Positions 53,633 to 63,321 are shown, numbered from the stretch's first letter. The stretch is DNA of 64,000 bases from a virus (IMGVR_UViG_3300029288_000080:96001-160000); one strand, 5' to 3'. The notes: generated by a model not told the origin, from the letters alone. A program made the numbers and translations.

Positions 53633-56611
53633 ATGCCAACTTCCCGTCTAACTCCCGGTCGTCCCGCCATCTGCCAAGCCTGCCCGCTCCAAGAATCAGC
53701 GGGGCTCACTCGTCACTGCTGTTCCGTCCAGCAGGGTCGTGACACCTCCCTGATGATCATCGGGGACCACCCGGTTGACCTACAGCCCCATGGGGCTGAG
53801 CCCTTCACTGACCCAGCGGGTCAGATGCTCCAGCGGGTCATGGGGCAGGTGACCCAAGGGAACAGTGGCGTCGCCTACGGGTACTGTGTGCGGTGCCGCC
53901 CGATGGACCGGGGCAAGCCTGACAAAACCCGCCCGGCCACCGCCACGGAGGCCAACCACTGCCGGGTCAACGTCGCGAAAGACCTGGCCCTGCTGAAGCC
54001 CAAACAAGTGGTGTTGCTGGGCCTCGGGGCTGCAAAACTCCTGGCTCAACTGCCCGATGGTTCGGCCGTGTCGGCCAAGGTTCAGTTGGGCGACCTGCGG
54101 GGCCGCGACCTCCACTGCACCGCCCACGACGGCACCAAGATCCCCGTGATCGTCACGTACGACCCGGAGTTCATCCAGCGGAACCCCACGGTCGCGGCGA
54201 CGTGGCGCGACGATTTCCTGCGGGCCTGGCTTCGGGGGTCCGGTCGGCTCCCAGACGATTCCCGTGACGGCAAAGTCTACACCCTCGACACCATTGAGAA
54301 GGTTAGGAAGTTTGCCCGGCGGGTCGCGAAACTAAAGCGTGGCGATATTTTGGTCCTGGACTACGAGACCGAGGGACTCGGCCGCGTGGAAAACAAGATC
54401 CTGACCGCTGGTTTTGCATTTGACCCGGACCACGCCTATGTGATCCCGATGCAGCACCAGGAAGCCCCGTGGTCAGGGCCCGAATACCGAGAAATCGTGG
54501 GCTTGATCAAGCAGATCCTGACCAAGCCGGCTCCCTACTGGATCGGGGGCCACAACCTCAAGTTCGAGTTGCAGGTAACCCGTGGGCAACTGGGTTTTGA
54601 GATCGACCTACCCTGCTGCGACACCATGTTGAGGGCCCATGCACTCAATCCCGACTACGGTCGGGTGGATAAAAAGTCTCAGGGCCACGACGACGATGCT
54701 GTTGACCAGATTGTAGACACCACCGGGGACATTCAGGTCGGGGGTTTCGGGCTCAAGAGCCAGTCCAAGGAATGCCTGAACTTTCACCACTATGAAGACG
54801 AAGATGTGGCCGCTACGGTCGGGCGCCGCAACGAAGCGAAGTTGGCGTTACTGCCGCTCGACAAGGTTATCCGGTACAACGGGATTGATGGCTTCGTGAC
54901 CTTCCGGCTGAACCACTACCAAGACGTCATGGCCGAGGCCATGGGGTACCGAAAAAAGTTGACTCGGTTGTGCCGTGGCATGCACACCAAGGTCTTGGCC
55001 GTCCTGGTAGAAATGGAAACCAACGGGATCCGGGTGGACAAAGAATACCTCCGGATGTTGCTCCACGACGATTCCATCGTGCAGACCCGAATGCAGGAGA
55101 TTTCCCAGGAGTTTTGTGCCCTGCCCTCGGTCCAGGAGGCCAATCGACGCCTCCTGGCCGACAGGTATGGTGGCCAGGCTGGCCTGTGGGGCCAAGGGGC
55201 TGGTGAATCCTGGGTGTTCTCGATGCGGCAAGCTCTGTCCAAGAAAATTTTGCTGATTGACGTCCTGGAGTTGGAGCCCCTAAAGCACACGGCCGCCGGG
55301 GCGGTGTCAATCGACAAAAAATTCCTGGAGAACTACGCCGGGGTCCCGGAAGTAGACCTTCTGGCCGAGTGGACCGCACTCGCAACGATCAAGTCCAGGT
55401 ATCTCGTCGGGACCAACAAGGTCATGCTGGCAGACCCGGACATGCGGGATGGGCGAGCCAGGGCGCAGTTCCGGCCAGCCGGCACCATCACGGGGCGGAT
55501 TTCGGCCGCCGGGATCAACGTCCTGAACGTGCCGAAAAAGGCCGAGGACGGGTCTAAGAAGGCGTCGGCCTCACTGATCAAGCGGATGTACATCTGCGAT
55601 CCTGGTCATGTGATGGTCTGCGGTGACTACTCGCAAGCTGAGGTCCGGTGGCTCGCGGCCCTGACGCAAGACCCCGATATGCTCAAGGCGTTCGGGGCTG
55701 CGTGGGATATGCGGGCCTTGTGTCTCAAGGACCCATCCCCTGAAAATCTCAAGCGGCTGGACGCCGAGGGTGACTTCCACAAGCAAACCGCCTCGATGGT
55801 GTTCGACGTCCCGATCTCCAAGGTTACGAAGGAGCAGCGAGGCCAGTCGAAAGGCGTGGTCTTTGGCCAAATTTATGGTCAAGGATTACCGGCACTTGCA
55901 GCGATCCTGAAGAAAACCAAGGCCCAGACCGAGGAGTTCATCACGAGGTTCTTCGCGCGCTTCCCCGTGGCCAAAGACGCCTTGGCCCAGATGGCCCAGG
56001 ACGGGTTTGAAAATGGGTTTGCCGAGTCCCCGACGGGCCGGCGCAAACAATTCGTCACCAAGATGATCGCGGGGGACGCCCAGGCTCTACAGTATTGTTC
56101 TGGTAAACTACGGTCGCTCCGGGGCCGTGAGGAGCGGGTGGCCCGCAACATGCCGATCCAGGGGATTTCCTCCGACATGAACCTGACGGCCTGCTACCGG
56201 ATCATCCAGTATTACCGACGACACAATCTTCCGTGGCGCCTGATCAACTCGGTCTACGACTCCATCATGCTGGAAGTACCGCGTCAAGATGCCGAGCACT
56301 GCGTCGAGGTGGTGCAGTCCATTATGGAACGGGAAGATTTGCTCGCGGGATTTGGGATTGACCCAGGACTCAGGTTCCTGGCGGAAATGTCCGTCGGGAC
56401 CCACTGGGGCAACCAGGTGGACATCACGGCAGGCGAGCAGCAGTGGAAGGTGGGGTGCAGGTCCTGCAAAAAGTCCCGCGAGGAGAAAAAGAAGCCGACC
56501 AACCATCGGTGCGAATCATGTGGGTCCACCGACGTATACCTCGAGTTGATCAAGGGGCCACATGATTTGGCGTTTAAGTGGCTGGATCGCCAACTCAGGG
56601 GCAAGGCGTGA
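53633..56611 (+). CDS. polA: Family A DNA polymerase with N-terminal family-4 UDG-like domain, 3'-5' exonuclease and C-terminal Zn ribbon
   Basis: Exo DYET, HNLKFE and YNGID; Pol motifs DYSQAE, R...K...FG..YG and VYDS. Confidence 0.92.
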   Translation: MPTSRLTPGRPAICQACPLQESAGLTRHCCSVQQGRDTSLMIIGDHPVDLQPHGAEPFTDPAGQMLQRVMGQVTQGNSGVAYGYCVRCRPMDRGKPDKTRPATATEANHCRVNVAKDLALLKPKQVVLLGLGAAKLLAQLPDGSAVSAKVQLGDLRGRDLHCTAHDGTKIPVIVTYDPEFIQRNPTVAATWRDDFLRAWLRGSGRLPDDSRDGKVYTLDTIEKVRKFARRVAKLKRGDILVLDYETEGLGRVENKILTAGFAFDPDHAYVIPMQHQEAPWSGPEYREIVGLIKQILTKPAPYWIGGHNLKFELQVTRGQLGFEIDLPCCDTMLRAHALNPDYGRVDKKSQGHDDDAVDQIVDTTGDIQVGGFGLKSQSKECLNFHHYEDEDVAATVGRRNEAKLALLPLDKVIRYNGIDGFVTFRLNHYQDVMAEAMGYRKKLTRLCRGMHTKVLAVLVEMETNGIRVDKEYLRMLLHDDSIVQTRMQEISQEFCALPSVQEANRRLLADRYGGQAGLWGQGAGESWVFSMRQALSKKILLIDVLELEPLKHTAAGAVSIDKKFLENYAGVPEVDLLAEWTALATIKSRYLVGTNKVMLADPDMRDGRARAQFRPAGTITGRISAAGINVLNVPKKAEDGSKKASASLIKRMYICDPGHVMVCGDYSQAEVRWLAALTQDPDMLKAFGAAWDMRALCLKDPSPENLKRLDAEGDFHKQTASMVFDVPISKVTKEQRGQSKGVVFGQIYGQGLPALAAILKKTKAQTEEFITRFFARFPVAKDALAQMAQDGFENGFAESPTGRRKQFVTKMIAGDAQALQYCSGKLRSLRGREERVARNMPIQGISSDMNLTACYRIIQYYRRHNLPWRLINSVYDSIMLEVPRQDAEHCVEVVQSIMEREDLLAGFGIDPGLRFLAEMSVGTHWGNQVDITAGEQQWKVGCRSCKKSREEKKKPTNHRCESCGSTDVYLELIKGPHDLAFKWLDRQLRGKA

Positions 56612-56829
56612 TCGAGTTACCGGTCAAGGTAGTGGACTGTGCTGTCTGCCATGCCGTGGATCAACTTATCTTGACCTTCGAGGCCACTGGGTTCGGAGCA
56701 CTTTATCGTGTGGTGTGCCCAGGATGTGGCTACTCGGCCCCGCCGAACAAAACCGAAGAAAAAGCCGTGGCCCGGTGGAACTCGTGCCAGTCCAGCCGCG
56801 GTAGGGTAAAACGAAATAAAGAAAAATGA
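56608..56829 (+). CDS. Lar-like (restriction alleviation family) Zn-ribbon protein
   Basis: CAVC...VVCPGCG...AVARWN. Confidence 0.55.
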   Translation: MIELPVKVVDCAVCHAVDQLILTFEATGFGALYRVVCPGCGYSAPPNKTEEKAVARWNSCQSSRGRVKRNKEK

Positions 56830-58064
56830 CATGGTTCATCACACCGCAGTTAATGCAGCAGTACCGTCTGGCTTGCGAGAAATCGCCTTGTTTGCCGGAG
56901 CAGGTGGAGGAATCCTCGGCGGACATCTCCTCGGGTGGAAAACAGTCTGCGCCGTCGAAATCACGCCGTACGCCCGGGAAGTCTTGTTCGCCCGACAGGC
57001 CGACGGAACTCTTGAACCCTTCCCCGTCTGGGACGACATCCGTACTTTTGACGGACGCGCTTGGCGAGGCTATTGTGACGTGGTTTCGGGAGGATTTCCT
57101 TGCCAGGATGTCAGCTCGGCCGGAAAAGGTGCCGGTATTGACGGCGAAAGATCAGGACTCTGGGGCGAGATGGCGCGGGTCATCGGTGAGGTGCAACCCC
57201 GATGGGTCTGGGTGGAAAATAGCCCATTGCTGGTTTCCAGAGGACTTGTCAGAGTCGTCCGTGACCTTACCACGCTGGGGTATAGTTGTGCGTGGGGACG
57301 TGTGGGAGCCTGGCAAGTCAGTGCCCCGCATCGTCGAGATCGATTCTGGCTCATCGGAAATCGTGAGTGCCCAGAGTAATGTCAGGGTTCCTTGGCCAAC
57401 CCCCATGGTCACGGATGCTAAAAACAAAGGTGGAAAAGGGCAACTACGCCGTAAGTATCCACCGCTCAATGCCGTCGTCGGGATTGAGCGGTCCAGCAAG
57501 GCTACCGAGGCGTTGGCCTGGCCAACGCCTCAGTCCCGAGACTACAAAGGGGCACCAGGAAAGGGCTGTGTTGAGCGTGGCGGACACCAGTCAAGTTTAC
57601 CAATGAAGATTGGGCAAGTCACCGAGGCGTTGGCCAGGCCAACGCCTCGGTCCTGTACCGCCACGGCCGCCACCATCACGGAGCAGGCACAACAATGTGC
57701 TGCTGACCGTTTCCCTAATCTGGAAACCGTGATGGTCCAGCGGGAACATGGGGCAGTCGGGGGTGCCTTGAATCCAGCATGGGTGGAGTGGCTCATGAAC
57801 TGGCCCGTGGGTTGGACCAACCTGAAACCTATCCGGGGATTTAACCGCTGGCGTCGCAAAACCATGGAATCCTCCTGGTGGGCCCGAGATCCAGCCGACG
57901 AACCCGATACCAAGGTGCCGCGCATATCCGTGGGGAAACTGCACCGAGTTGACCGACTCAAGGCCATCGGGAACGGTCAAGTGCCCCTCTGCTGTGCCTT
58001 GGCATTCCTGACGCTCCAGCGGGAGTTACTGACATTTTTGAAAAATCACCCTTCCGGTCGGTAA
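56826..58064 (+). CDS. C5 methyltransferase second subunit (WPTP modules, motifs IX-X), N-terminus overprinted on the catalytic subunit
   Basis: LNPAWVEWLMNWP and RLKAIGNGQVP; ATGA coupling to the upstream gene. Confidence 0.7.
   Translation: MTWFITPQLMQQYRLACEKSPCLPEQVEESSADISSGGKQSAPSKSRRTPGKSCSPDRPTELLNPSPSGTTSVLLTDALGEAIVTWFREDFLARMSARPEKVPVLTAKDQDSGARWRGSSVRCNPDGSGWKIAHCWFPEDLSESSVTLPRWGIVVRGDVWEPGKSVPRIVEIDSGSSEIVSAQSNVRVPWPTPMVTDAKNKGGKGQLRRKYPPLNAVVGIERSSKATEALAWPTPQSRDYKGAPGKGCVERGGHQSSLPMKIGQVTEALARPTPRSCTATAATITEQAQQCAADRFPNLETVMVQREHGAVGGALNPAWVEWLMNWPVGWTNLKPIRGFNRWRRKTMESSWWARDPADEPDTKVPRISVGKLHRVDRLKAIGNGQVPLCCALAFLTLQRELLTFLKNHPSGR
56831..57379 (+). CDS. C5 cytosine DNA methyltransferase, catalytic subunit (motifs I-VIII)
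   Basis: LFAGAGG, GGFPCQD, WVENS and HRRDRFW. Confidence 0.85.
   Translation: MVHHTAVNAAVPSGLREIALFAGAGGGILGGHLLGWKTVCAVEITPYAREVLFARQADGTLEPFPVWDDIRTFDGRAWRGYCDVVSGGFPCQDVSSAGKGAGIDGERSGLWGEMARVIGEVQPRWVWVENSPLLVSRGLVRVVRDLTTLGYSCAWGRVGAWQVSAPHRRDRFWLIGNRECPE
57504..57651. repeat. Two 31-bp palindromic direct repeats (57504-57534 and 57621-57651)
   Basis: ACCGAGGCGTTGGCC-W-GGCCAACGCCTCRGT, 117-bp period. Confidence 0.9.
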
Positions 58065-58094: not shown

Positions 58095-59663
58095 ATGCCT
58101 GACCAAAAATGTACCCCTTTTGATGAACAATGGCTTCGGCTCCAACCCTGGCAGGTTTCATTCCTGCTGGCTCCCTGTCGGTGTAAAGCCCCGGTCAAGA
58201 TGGTGTGGACCTTGCCCGGAGATTTCCCGGCCATTATCTGCACCACCTGTAACTACGGGATTGTCGGCGACACCGTCGAACAGGTGGTGCTGCGGCACAA
58301 CCATGAGCGTGCCGTTGTCTCCGACGTCAAGTCCTCGCATTTCCCCACTGCTGACCTACAACTCCATTACGCCGTGGACCTCTTGGTCGCGCTGTTGCCC
58401 TGTCGAGAAGTCCAGGACGGCATCGATGCCCTGGTCCACCAGGGAAAACTCCCGGCCGACAAACCCTACTGTGTCCATCGGGCTGGCCCGGCCCATTGTG
58501 CTGGGTTGGAAAAAGACTTCGCTGAGTTGAGCGGCACCCTGGCCAACCTGGTCTTGAAGGATGCCAAAGCCGGTAGCATTCTGAAATCCGGCCAGACCGT
58601 GGAGCAGGCCAAAGCACTGGACGACGCAAGTCATAAATACTGGTCTGAGATCAACGAACGGGCCAAAAAGAACGTTCAAGAGCATCCCGACACCGTAGAC
58701 TTGGATAATGCGCGGGGGAAAAAAGCCGCCCAAGCCAAACTGGCCAAGATGTCCCGTGAACAGATCTTGGTCGGGATGTCGCTCAAGGATTTTTATTCCA
58801 CTGAATGTGGTGCAATCCCGAAAGTCAGCGAGGCCGAATGGAGAGTCCTCATCCAGGACCGTTTGAAGCAACTGGACGAGCTGGACCGCCGCGTTGCCGA
58901 GAAAAAGGCCAAGATGGCCACACCGTCGGGCCTCAAGACCGCCACGGTGAAAAAGCCGACCAAGACGACGGTCAAGAAGGGCGTGGTGCCGGCACCACCG
59001 GCCCGTAAATCCATCCAGGCCAGGGTGCCGTGCATCGCCGACGAGAACGAGAAAATCCAGGCCATGCACCTGCCGCCCAAGGGGTCGATAATCTTGGTGC
59101 TCGGTAGCGACGAGGCAGTTGCCGCCCAGCAGGCTGCCCAGAAGACCAAGGTTCTTGCCGAGCAAGACAAGGCCAAGGAGCAGGACGACCATGATCCCAA
59201 GGCTACCGAGGCACTCCAGACCAAGCTCCGGTCAATCGCGAAGGTTGCACTGCAGCGAAGCGGTAACATCCTGGTCAAGTCCCAGACCCAAGTGATCCGG
59301 GTGCTGTATCGTGAACAGGGTAACCTGTACGAAATCTCAAGCATCCTGGGGAATCCCCACGGATTCGTGGTGCAGCGGGTCGTGTATGTGGCGGGGGTTT
59401 CAAATGTCCCCACTAAACTGCCCGGCCAAGACATGGAAGCGGTCCTGGGGATCGCGACCCCCGGGCCCAACAACGAGATGAACAACACCGTCTGGTATGA
59501 CCGGATTGACCTACGGCCCCGCGACGGTACCGTCGCGGCAGGACCGTCGCTGCATCTTTGCTGTCACAATGTTGAAGCCCAGGTTTCCGCTGGCCCCACG
59601 TTAGCCTCTATCGTTGACACCACCAAGCCGGCTGAGCCGGAGAAAGACCAGTCCAATGCGTAG
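58095..59663 (+). CDS. Hypothetical multi-domain protein with N-terminal Zn ribbon
   Basis: AAGGA RBS; CRC...CTTC; 522 aa. Confidence 0.65.
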   Translation: MPDQKCTPFDEQWLRLQPWQVSFLLAPCRCKAPVKMVWTLPGDFPAIICTTCNYGIVGDTVEQVVLRHNHERAVVSDVKSSHFPTADLQLHYAVDLLVALLPCREVQDGIDALVHQGKLPADKPYCVHRAGPAHCAGLEKDFAELSGTLANLVLKDAKAGSILKSGQTVEQAKALDDASHKYWSEINERAKKNVQEHPDTVDLDNARGKKAAQAKLAKMSREQILVGMSLKDFYSTECGAIPKVSEAEWRVLIQDRLKQLDELDRRVAEKKAKMATPSGLKTATVKKPTKTTVKKGVVPAPPARKSIQARVPCIADENEKIQAMHLPPKGSIILVLGSDEAVAAQQAAQKTKVLAEQDKAKEQDDHDPKATEALQTKLRSIAKVALQRSGNILVKSQTQVIRVLYREQGNLYEISSILGNPHGFVVQRVVYVAGVSNVPTKLPGQDMEAVLGIATPGPNNEMNNTVWYDRIDLRPRDGTVAAGPSLHLCCHNVEAQVSAGPTLASIVDTTKPAEPEKDQSNA

Positions 59664-60608: not shown

Positions 60609-60655
60609 TCCCAACCATTAAGCTAGATTTAATGGTTCCGCACCCCGAGGTCCAG

Positions 60656-61462
60656 ATGGCCAAAAAGCGAAACGACGAAGAACAATGGCGTGATGTCCCT
60701 GGATACGAGGGTCTGTACCAAGTTTCTTCGTGGGGCAAAGTCAAAAGTCTAAGCCGCCAAACCCGGAATGGCCCAGGTGACAACCACTGGATGTGGTCCA
60801 AAGACCGGATTTTGGCTGCACCAATAGATGCTCGCGGATATCGCTATGTAGGACTACCGCGTTTTGCTGCTGACGGACAGGCCACCTGCACGTATAAAAA
60901 TCATCGCGTGCACTTACTTGTCCTGGCAGCATTCGTGGGGCCCTTACCCCAGGACCAGATGGGCCGGCATTTAGACAACAATAAACTAAACAACAGATTA
61001 GACAATCTTGCCTATGGAACCCACCAAGACAACATGAACGACAAGTTCGTTCATGGCACTAATCCAGCAGGTTCAAAAAATCCTGGGAGTAAACTAAGCG
61101 AAGACGATGTATTGGCGATACGAAATGCTTTTGTTCGTGGTGCCACCCAAACCAGTCTAGCGCTAGAATACCACGTGAGCGTCGGTAGCGTGTGCAATAT
61201 CGTGCATGGCAAGTCATGGCAGCATGTCACGATGCCACCTAAGCTGCTGCGGTACTTAGAACAGCACCCTGTTTCAGCAAGCTACCGTCACCGCGGTGAC
61301 AGACGAGTCATGACTGAAGCGCAGGTCGTAGAGATACGACAATGGTATGATCGGCATAAAAAGTCCGTCGCGAGCACCGCGCGGCACTTTAGCCTTCCGT
61401 ATGGCAGCGTAAGAGGCATCATTACTGGTCGTACCTGGCGATCCTTGCTGGAGCAAAAATAA
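60656..61462 (+). CDS. NUMOD4-HNH homing endonuclease with two HTH domains
   Basis: EQWRDVPGYEGLYQVS, VHLLV and RHLDNNKLNNRLDNL; lower GC. Confidence 0.88.
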   Translation: MAKKRNDEEQWRDVPGYEGLYQVSSWGKVKSLSRQTRNGPGDNHWMWSKDRILAAPIDARGYRYVGLPRFAADGQATCTYKNHRVHLLVLAAFVGPLPQDQMGRHLDNNKLNNRLDNLAYGTHQDNMNDKFVHGTNPAGSKNPGSKLSEDDVLAIRNAFVRGATQTSLALEYHVSVGSVCNIVHGKSWQHVTMPPKLLRYLEQHPVSASYRHRGDRRVMTEAQVVEIRQWYDRHKKSVASTARHFSLPYGSVRGIITGRTWRSLLEQK

Positions 61463-63321
61463 TGCCTGTGAAAAAATACGGCGCTGCCGAAATCCAAGTT
61501 CTTGAGGGACTGGAGCACATTCGTAAGCGTGTAGGAATGTATATCCCCGACACTGGACCTGCCGGGGTCCACCACCTTCTTCATGAAGCTGTTGATAATG
61601 CCGTGGACGAGTTCCTAGATGGCCACGTTGACGAAATCAGCGTCACATTGCTGCCAGATGGTGCTGTTGTTCAAGATAATGGCCGTGGGATTCCAGTGGA
61701 ACATCATGAGCAGGCCAACTGTTCCACCTTGGAAGCTGTGTTCACGCTGCTTCATGCAGGTGGCAAGTTCAAAAAAGGCGCCTACACCAGCGCTACCGGG
61801 GGGACTTTCGGCGTAGGTATAAAAACTCTAACGGCGCTCTCGTCCCACATGGTTGCCACGACTGTGCGGGATGGAAAATGTTGGCAACAGCAGTACCATC
61901 AGGGCAAGCCCACCACTAAAGTCCAGCGGGTTAAATCCGACTTGGCCGCTGGTGTCAGGGTGGAGTTTCACCCCGACCCAACCATTTTCGGCGAGTGGAA
62001 ATGGCAGCCCCGGAAGGTCGCGGCCTGGCTCCAGGACACCGCGTGGTTGTGCCCTGGCCTGACCATTATCCTGACCGTCGGGGACAAATCAGTCCGGTAC
62101 CATAGCCCCGACGGACTCGCTGGATTACTACGGCACGAAACCCCCGACGCCGTGGTCCAGGGCGACGTGGTAGAAATCCACGTTGAAGGGGTCGTGGACG
62201 CGGCGTTCTGCTGGACCGACGTGGAAGGCGAGCACTGGCGTTCCTGGGTCAACGTGGTGAACACCCCGGGCCACGGGGTCCACGTCAAAGGCGCCACCAG
62301 GGCGATCCAGGATTTTCTCCAGGAGTTGTCCGACCAGAAGATCCGGGGTGAGGATCTTCGCGATGGCCTCGTGGGTGCCATTCATGTCCGCACCCTGGAG
62401 CCGAAATTTCAGGGCCAGACCAAGCAACGGTTGGACAACCCCGAGGTCGAGACCCAGGTCTACGGGATTGTCCTGCAGCACCTCCGGGACCACCGAGCAG
62501 CCCTGCAGGACCAATGCTTGGCCATCGTGGCCAGGGCCAAGAGGATCCAGGACGCCCGCCAGAAGTTCCGGGCGGAACAGTCGGCCATCAAGAACGTCAA
62601 GGTCAAGCGAGGAGCCCGGGGGCTCCTACCGGACAAACTCGTAGAGGCCCCTGACTGTACGGCTGACGAGCGGGAACTCTACATCGTGGAGGGTGATTCG
62701 GCCGGCGGCACCGTCAAGAAGGCCAGGATCCGAAAACGCCGAGGCAAGGGTGACCACGAATACCACTACCAGGAGGTCTTTCAACTCCGGGGCAAGGTAG
62801 CGAACGCAGCCCGAAAAGGCGAGGTTGAGGACCTGCTGAAAAACCAGGAGGTCAAGGACCTGATCACCGCGATTGGCGCTGGGATTGGTGACTCGTTTGA
62901 CCTGACGAAGTGTCGGTACCGACACGTCTACCTCCTGGCCGACGCCGACCCTGATGGCAAGCACATCGTCGCGTTGCTCCTGGGACTGTTCGCCCGGTAT
63001 TTCCCAACGTTGATTTCCGCCGGGATTATCCGGGTGGTCCTGAACCCCCTGTTCATGGGGGTCACGGCGACCAGCAGGGTCTACGGCGATTCAGTCGAGG
63101 AAATCCGAGCAACCCTGGGGGGCAAGCAAAACATCAGGATCACGCGGTTCAAGGGCCTGGGCGAGTCCAACGCGTCTGACCTCCAAGCCTACGCGCTTCA
63201 CCCCAAGACCCGCCGGGTCCTGCAGGTGGAATGGGATGACAAGCACGACGCCAAGTTGGTCCAGCGGTACATGGGGCTCGACGTCACGGCCCGGAGGGAA
63301 ATCCTCGGGATTGTCGATTAA
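61462..63321 (+). CDS. gyrB: Type IIA topoisomerase subunit B (GyrB/ParE-like)
   Basis: LEGLEHIRKRVGMY, EAVDNAVDE, DNGRGIP, EGDSAGG, DADPDG and RFKGLGE. Confidence 0.93.
   Translation: MPVKKYGAAEIQVLEGLEHIRKRVGMYIPDTGPAGVHHLLHEAVDNAVDEFLDGHVDEISVTLLPDGAVVQDNGRGIPVEHHEQANCSTLEAVFTLLHAGGKFKKGAYTSATGGTFGVGIKTLTALSSHMVATTVRDGKCWQQQYHQGKPTTKVQRVKSDLAAGVRVEFHPDPTIFGEWKWQPRKVAAWLQDTAWLCPGLTIILTVGDKSVRYHSPDGLAGLLRHETPDAVVQGDVVEIHVEGVVDAAFCWTDVEGEHWRSWVNVVNTPGHGVHVKGATRAIQDFLQELSDQKIRGEDLRDGLVGAIHVRTLEPKFQGQTKQRLDNPEVETQVYGIVLQHLRDHRAALQDQCLAIVARAKRIQDARQKFRAEQSAIKNVKVKRGARGLLPDKLVEAPDCTADERELYIVEGDSAGGTVKKARIRKRRGKGDHEYHYQEVFQLRGKVANAARKGEVEDLLKNQEVKDLITAIGAGIGDSFDLTKCRYRHVYLLADADPDGKHIVALLLGLFARYFPTLISAGIIRVVLNPLFMGVTATSRVYGDSVEEIRATLGGKQNIRITRFKGLGESNASDLQAYALHPKTRRVLQVEWDDKHDAKLVQRYMGLDVTARREILGIVD

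Follow-up and report, generated by a model that had tools for sequence, protein, structure and literature searches.

A phage DNA (cytosine-5) methyltransferase probably encoded as two chains in overlapping frames of one strand

Introduction

Dual coding over long stretches, in two frames of the same strand, is considered uncommon in the genomes of cells and phages, and gene callers penalise it. Two DNA (cytosine-5) methyltransferases made as two chains provide the background here: M.EcoHK31I, reportedly studied by Lee, Kam and Shaw in 1995, and M.AquI, whose original study is said to be that of Karreman and de Waard in 1990. The former, from Escherichia coli HK31 (YGGCCR), consists of two polypeptides, alpha bearing motifs I-VIII together with X and beta, encoded in an alternate frame, with motif IX (PMC2836561, PMC3404938); N-terminal truncation of its beta chain weakens association with alpha (PMC2836561). 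M.AquI, from Agmenellum quadruplicatum (CYCGRG), is split in the variable region into one chain with motifs I-VIII and another with motifs IX-X (PMC3404938). In the present study we analyse a methyltransferase locus at positions 56826-58064 of a 64,000-nucleotide (nt) stretch of viral DNA (IMGVR_UViG_3300029288_000080:96001-160000), referred to as the window, in which two overlapping open reading frames (ORFs) appear to encode the two chains of one such enzyme.

A first-pass annotation of this DNA had invoked M.AquI as a split enzyme and M.EcoHK31I as one with an alternate-frame subunit, both of which are as stated in the publications (PMC3404938, PMC2836561). It had proposed a heterodimeric enzyme in which one subunit carries an overprinted extension of 180 amino acids (aa), rather than a frameshifted pseudogene. 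The layout of the locus, its paired starts and the selection on the second frame support that proposal, and from them we infer that the extension is translated and that a heterodimer forms.

Results

Two overlapping ORFs in one stretch of DNA

Direct reading confirmed that two start codons lie 5 nt apart and that the frame with motifs I-VIII (frame B, encoding alpha) stops at 57379. The other frame (frame A, encoding beta) is indeed ATGA-coupled to the upstream gene and stays open across the whole of frame B, an overlap of 549 nt, before supplying the variable region and motifs IX and X, all as the first-pass annotation had it. The features of the locus are as follows.

56578..56829, + strand: small zinc-ribbon ORF of 83 aa upstream of beta, its TGA sharing bases with the beta ATG (ATGA)
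56826..56834, + strand: tandem out-of-frame starts, beta ATG at 56826 and alpha ATG at 56831
56831..57379, + strand: predicted alpha subunit ORF (frame B), 182 aa, motifs I-VIII; PF00145, phrog_363, TIGR00675
56888-56911, + strand: alpha motif I (FxGxGG), read directly
57089-57109, + strand: alpha motif IV, PCQ with the catalytic Cys, read directly
57215-57226, + strand: alpha ENS (motif VI, ENV-type), read directly
57323-57349, + strand: alpha motif VIII RxR, read directly
56826..58064, + strand: predicted beta subunit ORF (frame A), 412 aa, +1 relative to frame B; N-extension, WPTP modules, motifs IX and X
56826..57365, + strand: N-extension of beta, about 180 aa, a +1 reading of bases shared with alpha
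56826..56855, + strand: beta N-terminal motif, M-T/S-W-hydrophobic...A-L-M/V type, 17 codons upstream of the usual site over motif I
57264..57311, + strand: hairpin element of the N-extension, beta residues 147-162; P149, W151, G152 and G157 nearly invariant
57277..57280, + strand: GGGG run, the frame-switch point of a fused ORF in a near-identical record (P0002)
57387..57647, + strand: variable region of beta, target-recognition-like; three WPTP-type modules, with a spacing of 39 codons for the last two
57768..57818, + strand: motif IX-like element of beta, better conserved than any other block in the family; modelled with a predicted local distance difference test (pLDDT) score of 84-94
57876..57986, + strand: WW..DP element, PR(V/I) element and motif X (GNGQVP helix), in the beta frame
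57945-57986, + strand: motif X of beta

The identity of alpha is clear from its catalytic core, in which motifs I, IV, VI and VIII are all four intact, and from profile searches: it matched positions 3-163 of the 324 in PF00145 (expect value, E, 5.5e-29), phrog_363 (1e-51) and the NCBIfam model TIGR00675, and a profile of its relatives matched residues 14-178 of M.HhaI (E 4e-21). Its TAA stop (57377-57379) lies 10 codons past motif VIII. Beta matched phrog_1008 over residues 85-397 (E 4e-24); neither its C-terminal part (C-part) nor its N-extension matched Pfam at E up to 10, and there was no match in NCBIfam or between a beta profile and the sequences in the PDB. The assignment of motifs IX and X to beta is suggested by their likeness to these motifs, by homology to the C-terminal halves of single-chain enzymes that bear PF00145, and by the model of the complex described below.

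Three such single-chain relatives (P0210, P0221 and P0195) have an N-domain related to alpha (E 1e-25 to 1e-40) and the same elements in the same order as the window, namely WPTP-type modules, the motif IX block, the WW element, PR(V/I) and a GNGQVP motif X, which ties the beta C-part to genuine C5-methyltransferases. Unlike the window, they read all these elements in one frame and have no second long ORF. Motif IV also differs, being of the common type, PCQPFS, in the single-chain relatives and PCQDIS in the dual-frame genes.

A large family with the same frame relationship

A search with the frame-A C-part returned about 6,100 cluster representatives at E below 1e-3, and 233 proteins were fetched. 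At the DNA level the comparison covered 163 loci: the window, two relatives found by exact protein look-up (L001 and L002) and 160 loci from IMG/VR and GTDB genomes, among them Pseudomonas, Acinetobacter, Paraburkholderia, Verrucomicrobiota, Planctomycetota, Spirochaetota and Actinomycetota. In two of these, contigs from the same study binned to different phyla as Microbacterium (L093) and Luteolibacter (L094) metagenome-assembled genomes, the methyltransferase N-domain is identical, probably because a single phage was assigned to both bins.

The catalytic N-domain lies exactly one frame behind the WPTP/motif IX frame in all 163 loci, from phages and from many bacterial phyla. At the protein level, 91 of the 233 C-part homologs have an N-terminus of the frame-A type and only 6 have an in-frame methyltransferase N-domain, two of these (P0002 and P0190) being evident frameshift fusions from which core motifs are missing. 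The same two ORFs are found in the closest relative, L001 (86% alpha identity), and in the distant L002 (42% C-part identity). The check proposed at the outset, that both frames be open in homologs, comes out positive: in 154 of 160 loci no stop interrupts frame A between its ATG near motif I and the point where the N-domain ends. Synonymous shuffles predict 3.2 frame-A stops on average in these relatives and leave the frame stop-free in about 2% of tries, and the third frame of the loci holds 9 stops on average. Conservation of the layout in more than 150 related phage and bacterial genes argues for a working design, not a broken gene.

The window is one instance of this very large family, and its layout is not the usual one. 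In 114 of the 163 loci frame A carries motif IX and frame B motif X, and the X core begins exactly 47 nt past the first Trp codon in IX. About 105 of these 114 have two frames without interruption from one end to the other, with a median overlap of 884 nt and frame ends at most 120 nt apart. In this nested layout alpha would consist of motifs I-VIII, a linker read over the modules of beta, and motif X, and beta of the extension, the recognition modules and motif IX. The layout of the window, in which alpha ends after motif VIII and motif X follows in the beta frame about 45 residues after IX, was seen in 15 of the 163 loci and 68 of the 233 proteins; L083, from Paraburkholderia caffeinilytica, has it too. 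It is a minority form that combines the partition of M.AquI with overprinting in the style of M.EcoHK31I.

In the nested loci (L003, L086 from Acinetobacter calcoaceticus, L087 from Pseudomonas sp., L089 and about 110 others) the same DNA encodes motif IX in frame A and, in frame B, a WW..EP..GRVA element before motif X. In the window the corresponding elements are separate and do not overlap (57768-57818 and 57876-57935). Overlap of both peptide elements in the one case and their separation in the other suggest an old duplication with a change of frame.

Two starts side by side

The start of frame A is conserved as well. In 126 of 160 loci a frame-A ATG precedes the motif I Phe codon by exactly 14 nt and lies inside a consensus, NTGAATGAGYTGG, that in relatives is preceded by a purine-rich, Shine-Dalgarno-like stretch. 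The alpha start, the NTG of this consensus, is 4 nt upstream of the beta ATG in 107 of the 160. In the window (56826-56834, ATGACATGG) the order is reversed, the beta ATG preceding the alpha ATG by 5 nt; this arrangement, ATGNCATGG, recurs in at least 12 loci, among them L001, L019, L025, L044, L055, L065 and L066. A pair of out-of-frame starts within one ribosome footprint is thus a character of the family.

Selection on frame A

We compared frame A in 30 non-redundant loci (alpha identity below 78%; a threshold of 65% leaves 4 loci only) with shuffles constrained to preserve the alpha protein, its codon usage and the openness of frame A. Over the extension, frame-A identity was 0.377, against 0.294 +/- 0.002 in the shuffles, and third bases at conserved 4-fold codons agreed at 0.427, against 0.297. 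The excess was strongest at single residues: conservation was 1.0 for P149 and 0.93 for W130, where the null gave 0.38 and 0.40, with L84, S145, S41 and D124 next.

The most telling evidence is the behaviour of the beta N-terminal motif. In the main group of loci it overlies alpha motif I, whereas in the group of the window it lies 9-17 codons further upstream, above a variable tail of alpha; the Gly and Ala codons of motif I differ between the groups, and the frame-A reading of motif I differs accordingly. Being kept whatever frame B encodes, the motif is conserved for its own sake. At 4-fold sites, too, the overlap has diverged less than the part of beta beyond it, at 0.26 versus 0.65 between the window and L001 and, in two further pairs of the window type, 0.20 versus 0.26 between L083 and L088 and 0.48 versus 0.67 between L085 and L122. 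Frame A is under selection of its own, with a consistent direction across tests and an uncertain effect size.

Structure models

An AlphaFold2 model of beta alone, built with 133 aligned sequences, was of high confidence only at residues 310-410 (pLDDT 84-94), with a short helix at residues 7-18 (pLDDT 74) and a hairpin near 151-160 (pLDDT 70). A fold search with this model gave nothing meaningful (best Z 3.0, long helices only), and a search of the ESM Atlas with the N-extension returned only viral 'hypothetical protein' clusters, below 0.9.

The model of alpha and beta together scored 0.91 for interaction prediction from aligned errors (ipSAE; median of three runs), and the best of three controls 0.00; at least 81% of the contacts were common to the runs and the partner pLDDT was at least 60. 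Of 80 solved complexes, 58 reach the mark applied, as do 2 of 110 mismatched pairs. The helix of motif X (beta residues 383-405) packs in this model on alpha residues 29-35, 127, 154-155 and 173-175, in the regions of motifs I and VIII, and residues 1-9, 83-95, 123-130 and 146-157 of the extension lie at the alpha interface, which takes in most of the residues singled out by the codon analysis (L84, W130 and P149). The prediction supports binding between alpha and beta.

Probable exchange of 3' modules

The layout of the window is scattered over a quick tree of the alpha N-domain, where 10 changes are needed and at least 3 are forced by well-supported branches. Pairs of loci with different layouts (L009 and L022, L100 and L150, L019 and L139) have dual-coded 5' halves that are 86-96% identical in protein and 3' halves at 18-28%; in the first pair the 5' halves are 96% identical and the 3' halves unrelated. 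Such like 5' halves with unrelated 3' halves point to recombination at the border between motif VIII and the variable region. Together with the scattered layouts, they suggest that layouts interconvert through exchange of 3' modules on a conserved dual-coded 5' cassette.

Discussion

A probable two-chain enzyme and how it might be made

In our judgement it is likely that this locus encodes a two-chain DNA (cytosine-5) methyltransferase from one region of messenger RNA read in two frames. Ribosomes would either bind directly or arrive after translating the upstream ORF, the stop of which overlaps the first ATG, and would start at either 56826 or 56831. Initiation at 56831 would yield alpha, 182 aa comprising the S-adenosylmethionine-binding and catalytic core with motifs I-VIII; initiation at 56826, the 5' ATG suggested by the sequence comparisons, would yield beta, 412 aa. 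The first 180 residues of beta would be mostly unstructured, with short conserved elements that probably hold it on alpha. Its second half, which contains motif IX and the helix of motif X besides the WPTP recognition modules, would complete the catalytic domain of alpha in trans, and we infer that the assembled chains are enzymatically active on a target sequence of their own. Given the truncation result for M.EcoHK31I and the complex model, a mostly disordered tether that docks on alpha is the most economical reading of the extension.

A wider scenario, in our view somewhat short of probable, would join these observations. The N-extension would have been born by overprinting on the methyltransferase core and would now be kept by purifying selection as a clamp of beta on alpha; the 5' cassette, paired starts included, would recombine with 3' specificity modules to give both the nested, EcoHK31I-like layout and the AquI-like one of the window; and the 4-5 nt spacing of the starts would set the ratio of alpha to beta from one ribosome-loading site.

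Several observations weigh against the two-chain interpretation or temper the evidence for it. In the window taken alone, synonymous shuffles of frame B predict 2.2 stops in frame A, with P(open) = 0.033, and many long alternate-frame (shadow) ORFs occur in this window of 58% guanine plus cytosine. Openness there is only mildly unlikely, so its significance rests on conservation in relatives. The +1 frame of the N-domain in the three single-chain proteins contains 1, 3 and 1 stops where 2.0, 5.3 and 2.2 are expected; being nearly stop-free in two of the three, it suggests that +1 stops are intrinsically few in this domain. The starts in the window lack a clear Shine-Dalgarno sequence upstream, and gene callers often choose a later beta start, as in P0034 (232 aa, from the contig of L085). 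The N-extension was mostly of low confidence in the model of beta alone (pLDDT 38-55). Alpha and beta are halves of one fold with many solved monomers, so the result for the complex may partly be memory. Finally, the excess of frame-A conservation is modest, and shared ancestry or mosaicism could inflate it.

Alternative explanations

One alternative, which we consider unlikely, keeps the split methyltransferase and lets beta start internally near the end of alpha, for example at GTG 57363, at ATG 57405 or within residues 110-150. Frame A upstream of that point would then be open through ribosome transit or composition and would not be functional protein, although such a start may also coexist with the 5' one. 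The first 110 residues of beta are its least confident and least conserved part, short forms of beta are often annotated, and the stop-poor +1 frame of the N-domain fits this explanation as well. The beta chain of M.EcoHK31I is much shorter than its alpha, with the first 42 residues dispensable in vitro and internal methionine starts possible (PMC2836561). An internal start, however, gives no reason for the frame-A ATG to keep its position beside the alpha start in 126 of the 160 loci, for the N-terminal motif of frame A to be conserved even above an unconstrained frame B, or for specific frame-A residues to be fixed via synonymous sites of alpha, and no Shine-Dalgarno-like stretch precedes 57363.

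It seems very improbable that programmed +1 frameshifting of ribosomes, or slippage in transcription, leads from frame B into frame A past motif VIII and so yields a single full-length enzyme. Frame A is indeed the +1 frame of B, the switch would fall in a short linker, and the single-chain relatives have their elements in this order. But there is no conserved slippery site: an in-frame X_XXY_YYZ heptamer occurs at the junction in only 7 of the 163 loci and a homopolymer of at least 6 in only 26, and the window has neither. In most relatives two opposite shifts would be needed for a colinear protein, and frameshifting would leave unexplained why the 5' ATG is conserved and why frame A is open upstream of the junction.

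The poorest account of the locus, to which we give hardly any credence, is a decaying gene or assembly error in which a 1-nt indel broke a colinear methyltransferase: assemblies commonly carry homopolymer errors and P0002 has a fused ORF of 410 aa, but that fusion, at GGGG 57277-57280, deletes motifs VII-VIII and restores no colinear enzyme, L001 differs at 15% of the overlap bases and yet keeps both frames, both starts and the alpha stop region, and the two-frame layout is family-wide. As reconstructed from the protein, P0002 (from a 132 kb contig) joins alpha residues 1-158 to beta residues 160-412, as the loss of one G from the run would produce. Either a homopolymer error or a defective allele, it is not the restored gene that the first-pass annotation had named as grounds for refutation.

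Repeats at the modules and the genomic neighbourhood

The variable region contains two 33-nt copies (57504-57536 and 57621-57653) that are 94% alike and lie 117 nt, or 39 codons, apart. Each is a 15+15 nt palindrome that encodes the start of a recognition module (...EALA(W/R)PTP...). A third hairpin-like pair is found at 57461-57492. The W-P codons read TGGCCA. In P0002 a W replaces the R of the third WPTP module, which would make both 33-nt palindromes identical at that base. These palindromes could be recombination or hairpin sites at module borders.

The window comes from a 177.6-kb IMG/VR virus record, a large phage genome, and the methyltransferase gene lies in a replication module with a fusion of uracil-DNA glycosylase to PolA, a metallophosphoesterase, an HNH endonuclease and a GyrB-like protein. 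In the fusion (53633-56611), a protein of 992 aa, residues 37-189 form a domain of the uracil-DNA-glycosylase superfamily (E 2e-14), which is joined to a 3'-5' exonuclease and a DNA polymerase of family A (E 1e-60). Zinc-ribbon-like CxxC...CxxC stretches occur both in the 83-aa ORF at 56578-56829, whose match to PF14354 (Lar-like) was weak and below the cut-off (E 0.0074), and at the N-terminus (58095-58300) of a downstream protein of 522 aa. L001 has a homolog of the latter and a different upstream gene. Further downstream, the last base of a NUMOD4/HNH homing-endonuclease-like ORF (60632-61462) is the first base of the GyrB-like topoisomerase ORF (61462-63321).

Significance

If the two-chain interpretation holds, some 550 nt in the window, and a median of 884 nt in relatives, would encode two chains of one enzyme. 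Public phage records annotate one frame only, as 'DNA methyltransferase' or 'hypothetical protein', so that annotation, methylome-to-gene assignments and expression constructs would routinely lack half of the enzyme. We found no description of the wider dual-frame family in the literature searched, which is no proof that none exists. To this family the window adds an AquI-like variant of the layout with motif X moved to the beta frame, a displaced N-terminal motif as direct evidence of selection on beta, and evidence of exchange between 5' and 3' modules. The family offers a natural system in which to study the origin of overprinted segments, the assembly of split methyltransferases and the swapping of specificity modules.

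Comparison with known two-chain methyltransferases

Compared by description, M.EcoHK31I is the closest known case. Like the locus in the window, it is a C5-methyltransferase of two polypeptides from two overlapping frames of the same strand. Its described partition of motifs is the one common to 114 of the 163 loci, not that of the window, and its nesting of the beta gene, present in about 105 compact relatives, is absent here: beta is not nested in alpha, the two ORFs overlapping for 549 nt before frame A runs on for 685 nt beyond the alpha stop. Further, motif VIII is the last motif of alpha and motif X belongs to beta, which is longer than alpha, starts beside the alpha start and carries the variable region.

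In its division of motifs the window resembles M.AquI, in which one chain likewise has motifs I-VIII and the other IX-X. In the description of M.AquI, however, some of the variable region belongs to alpha, and beta is not said to have a long overprinted extension (PMC3404938). In the window, by contrast, beta would have a 180-aa extension read from the alpha gene itself, and the two chains would start only 5 nt apart.

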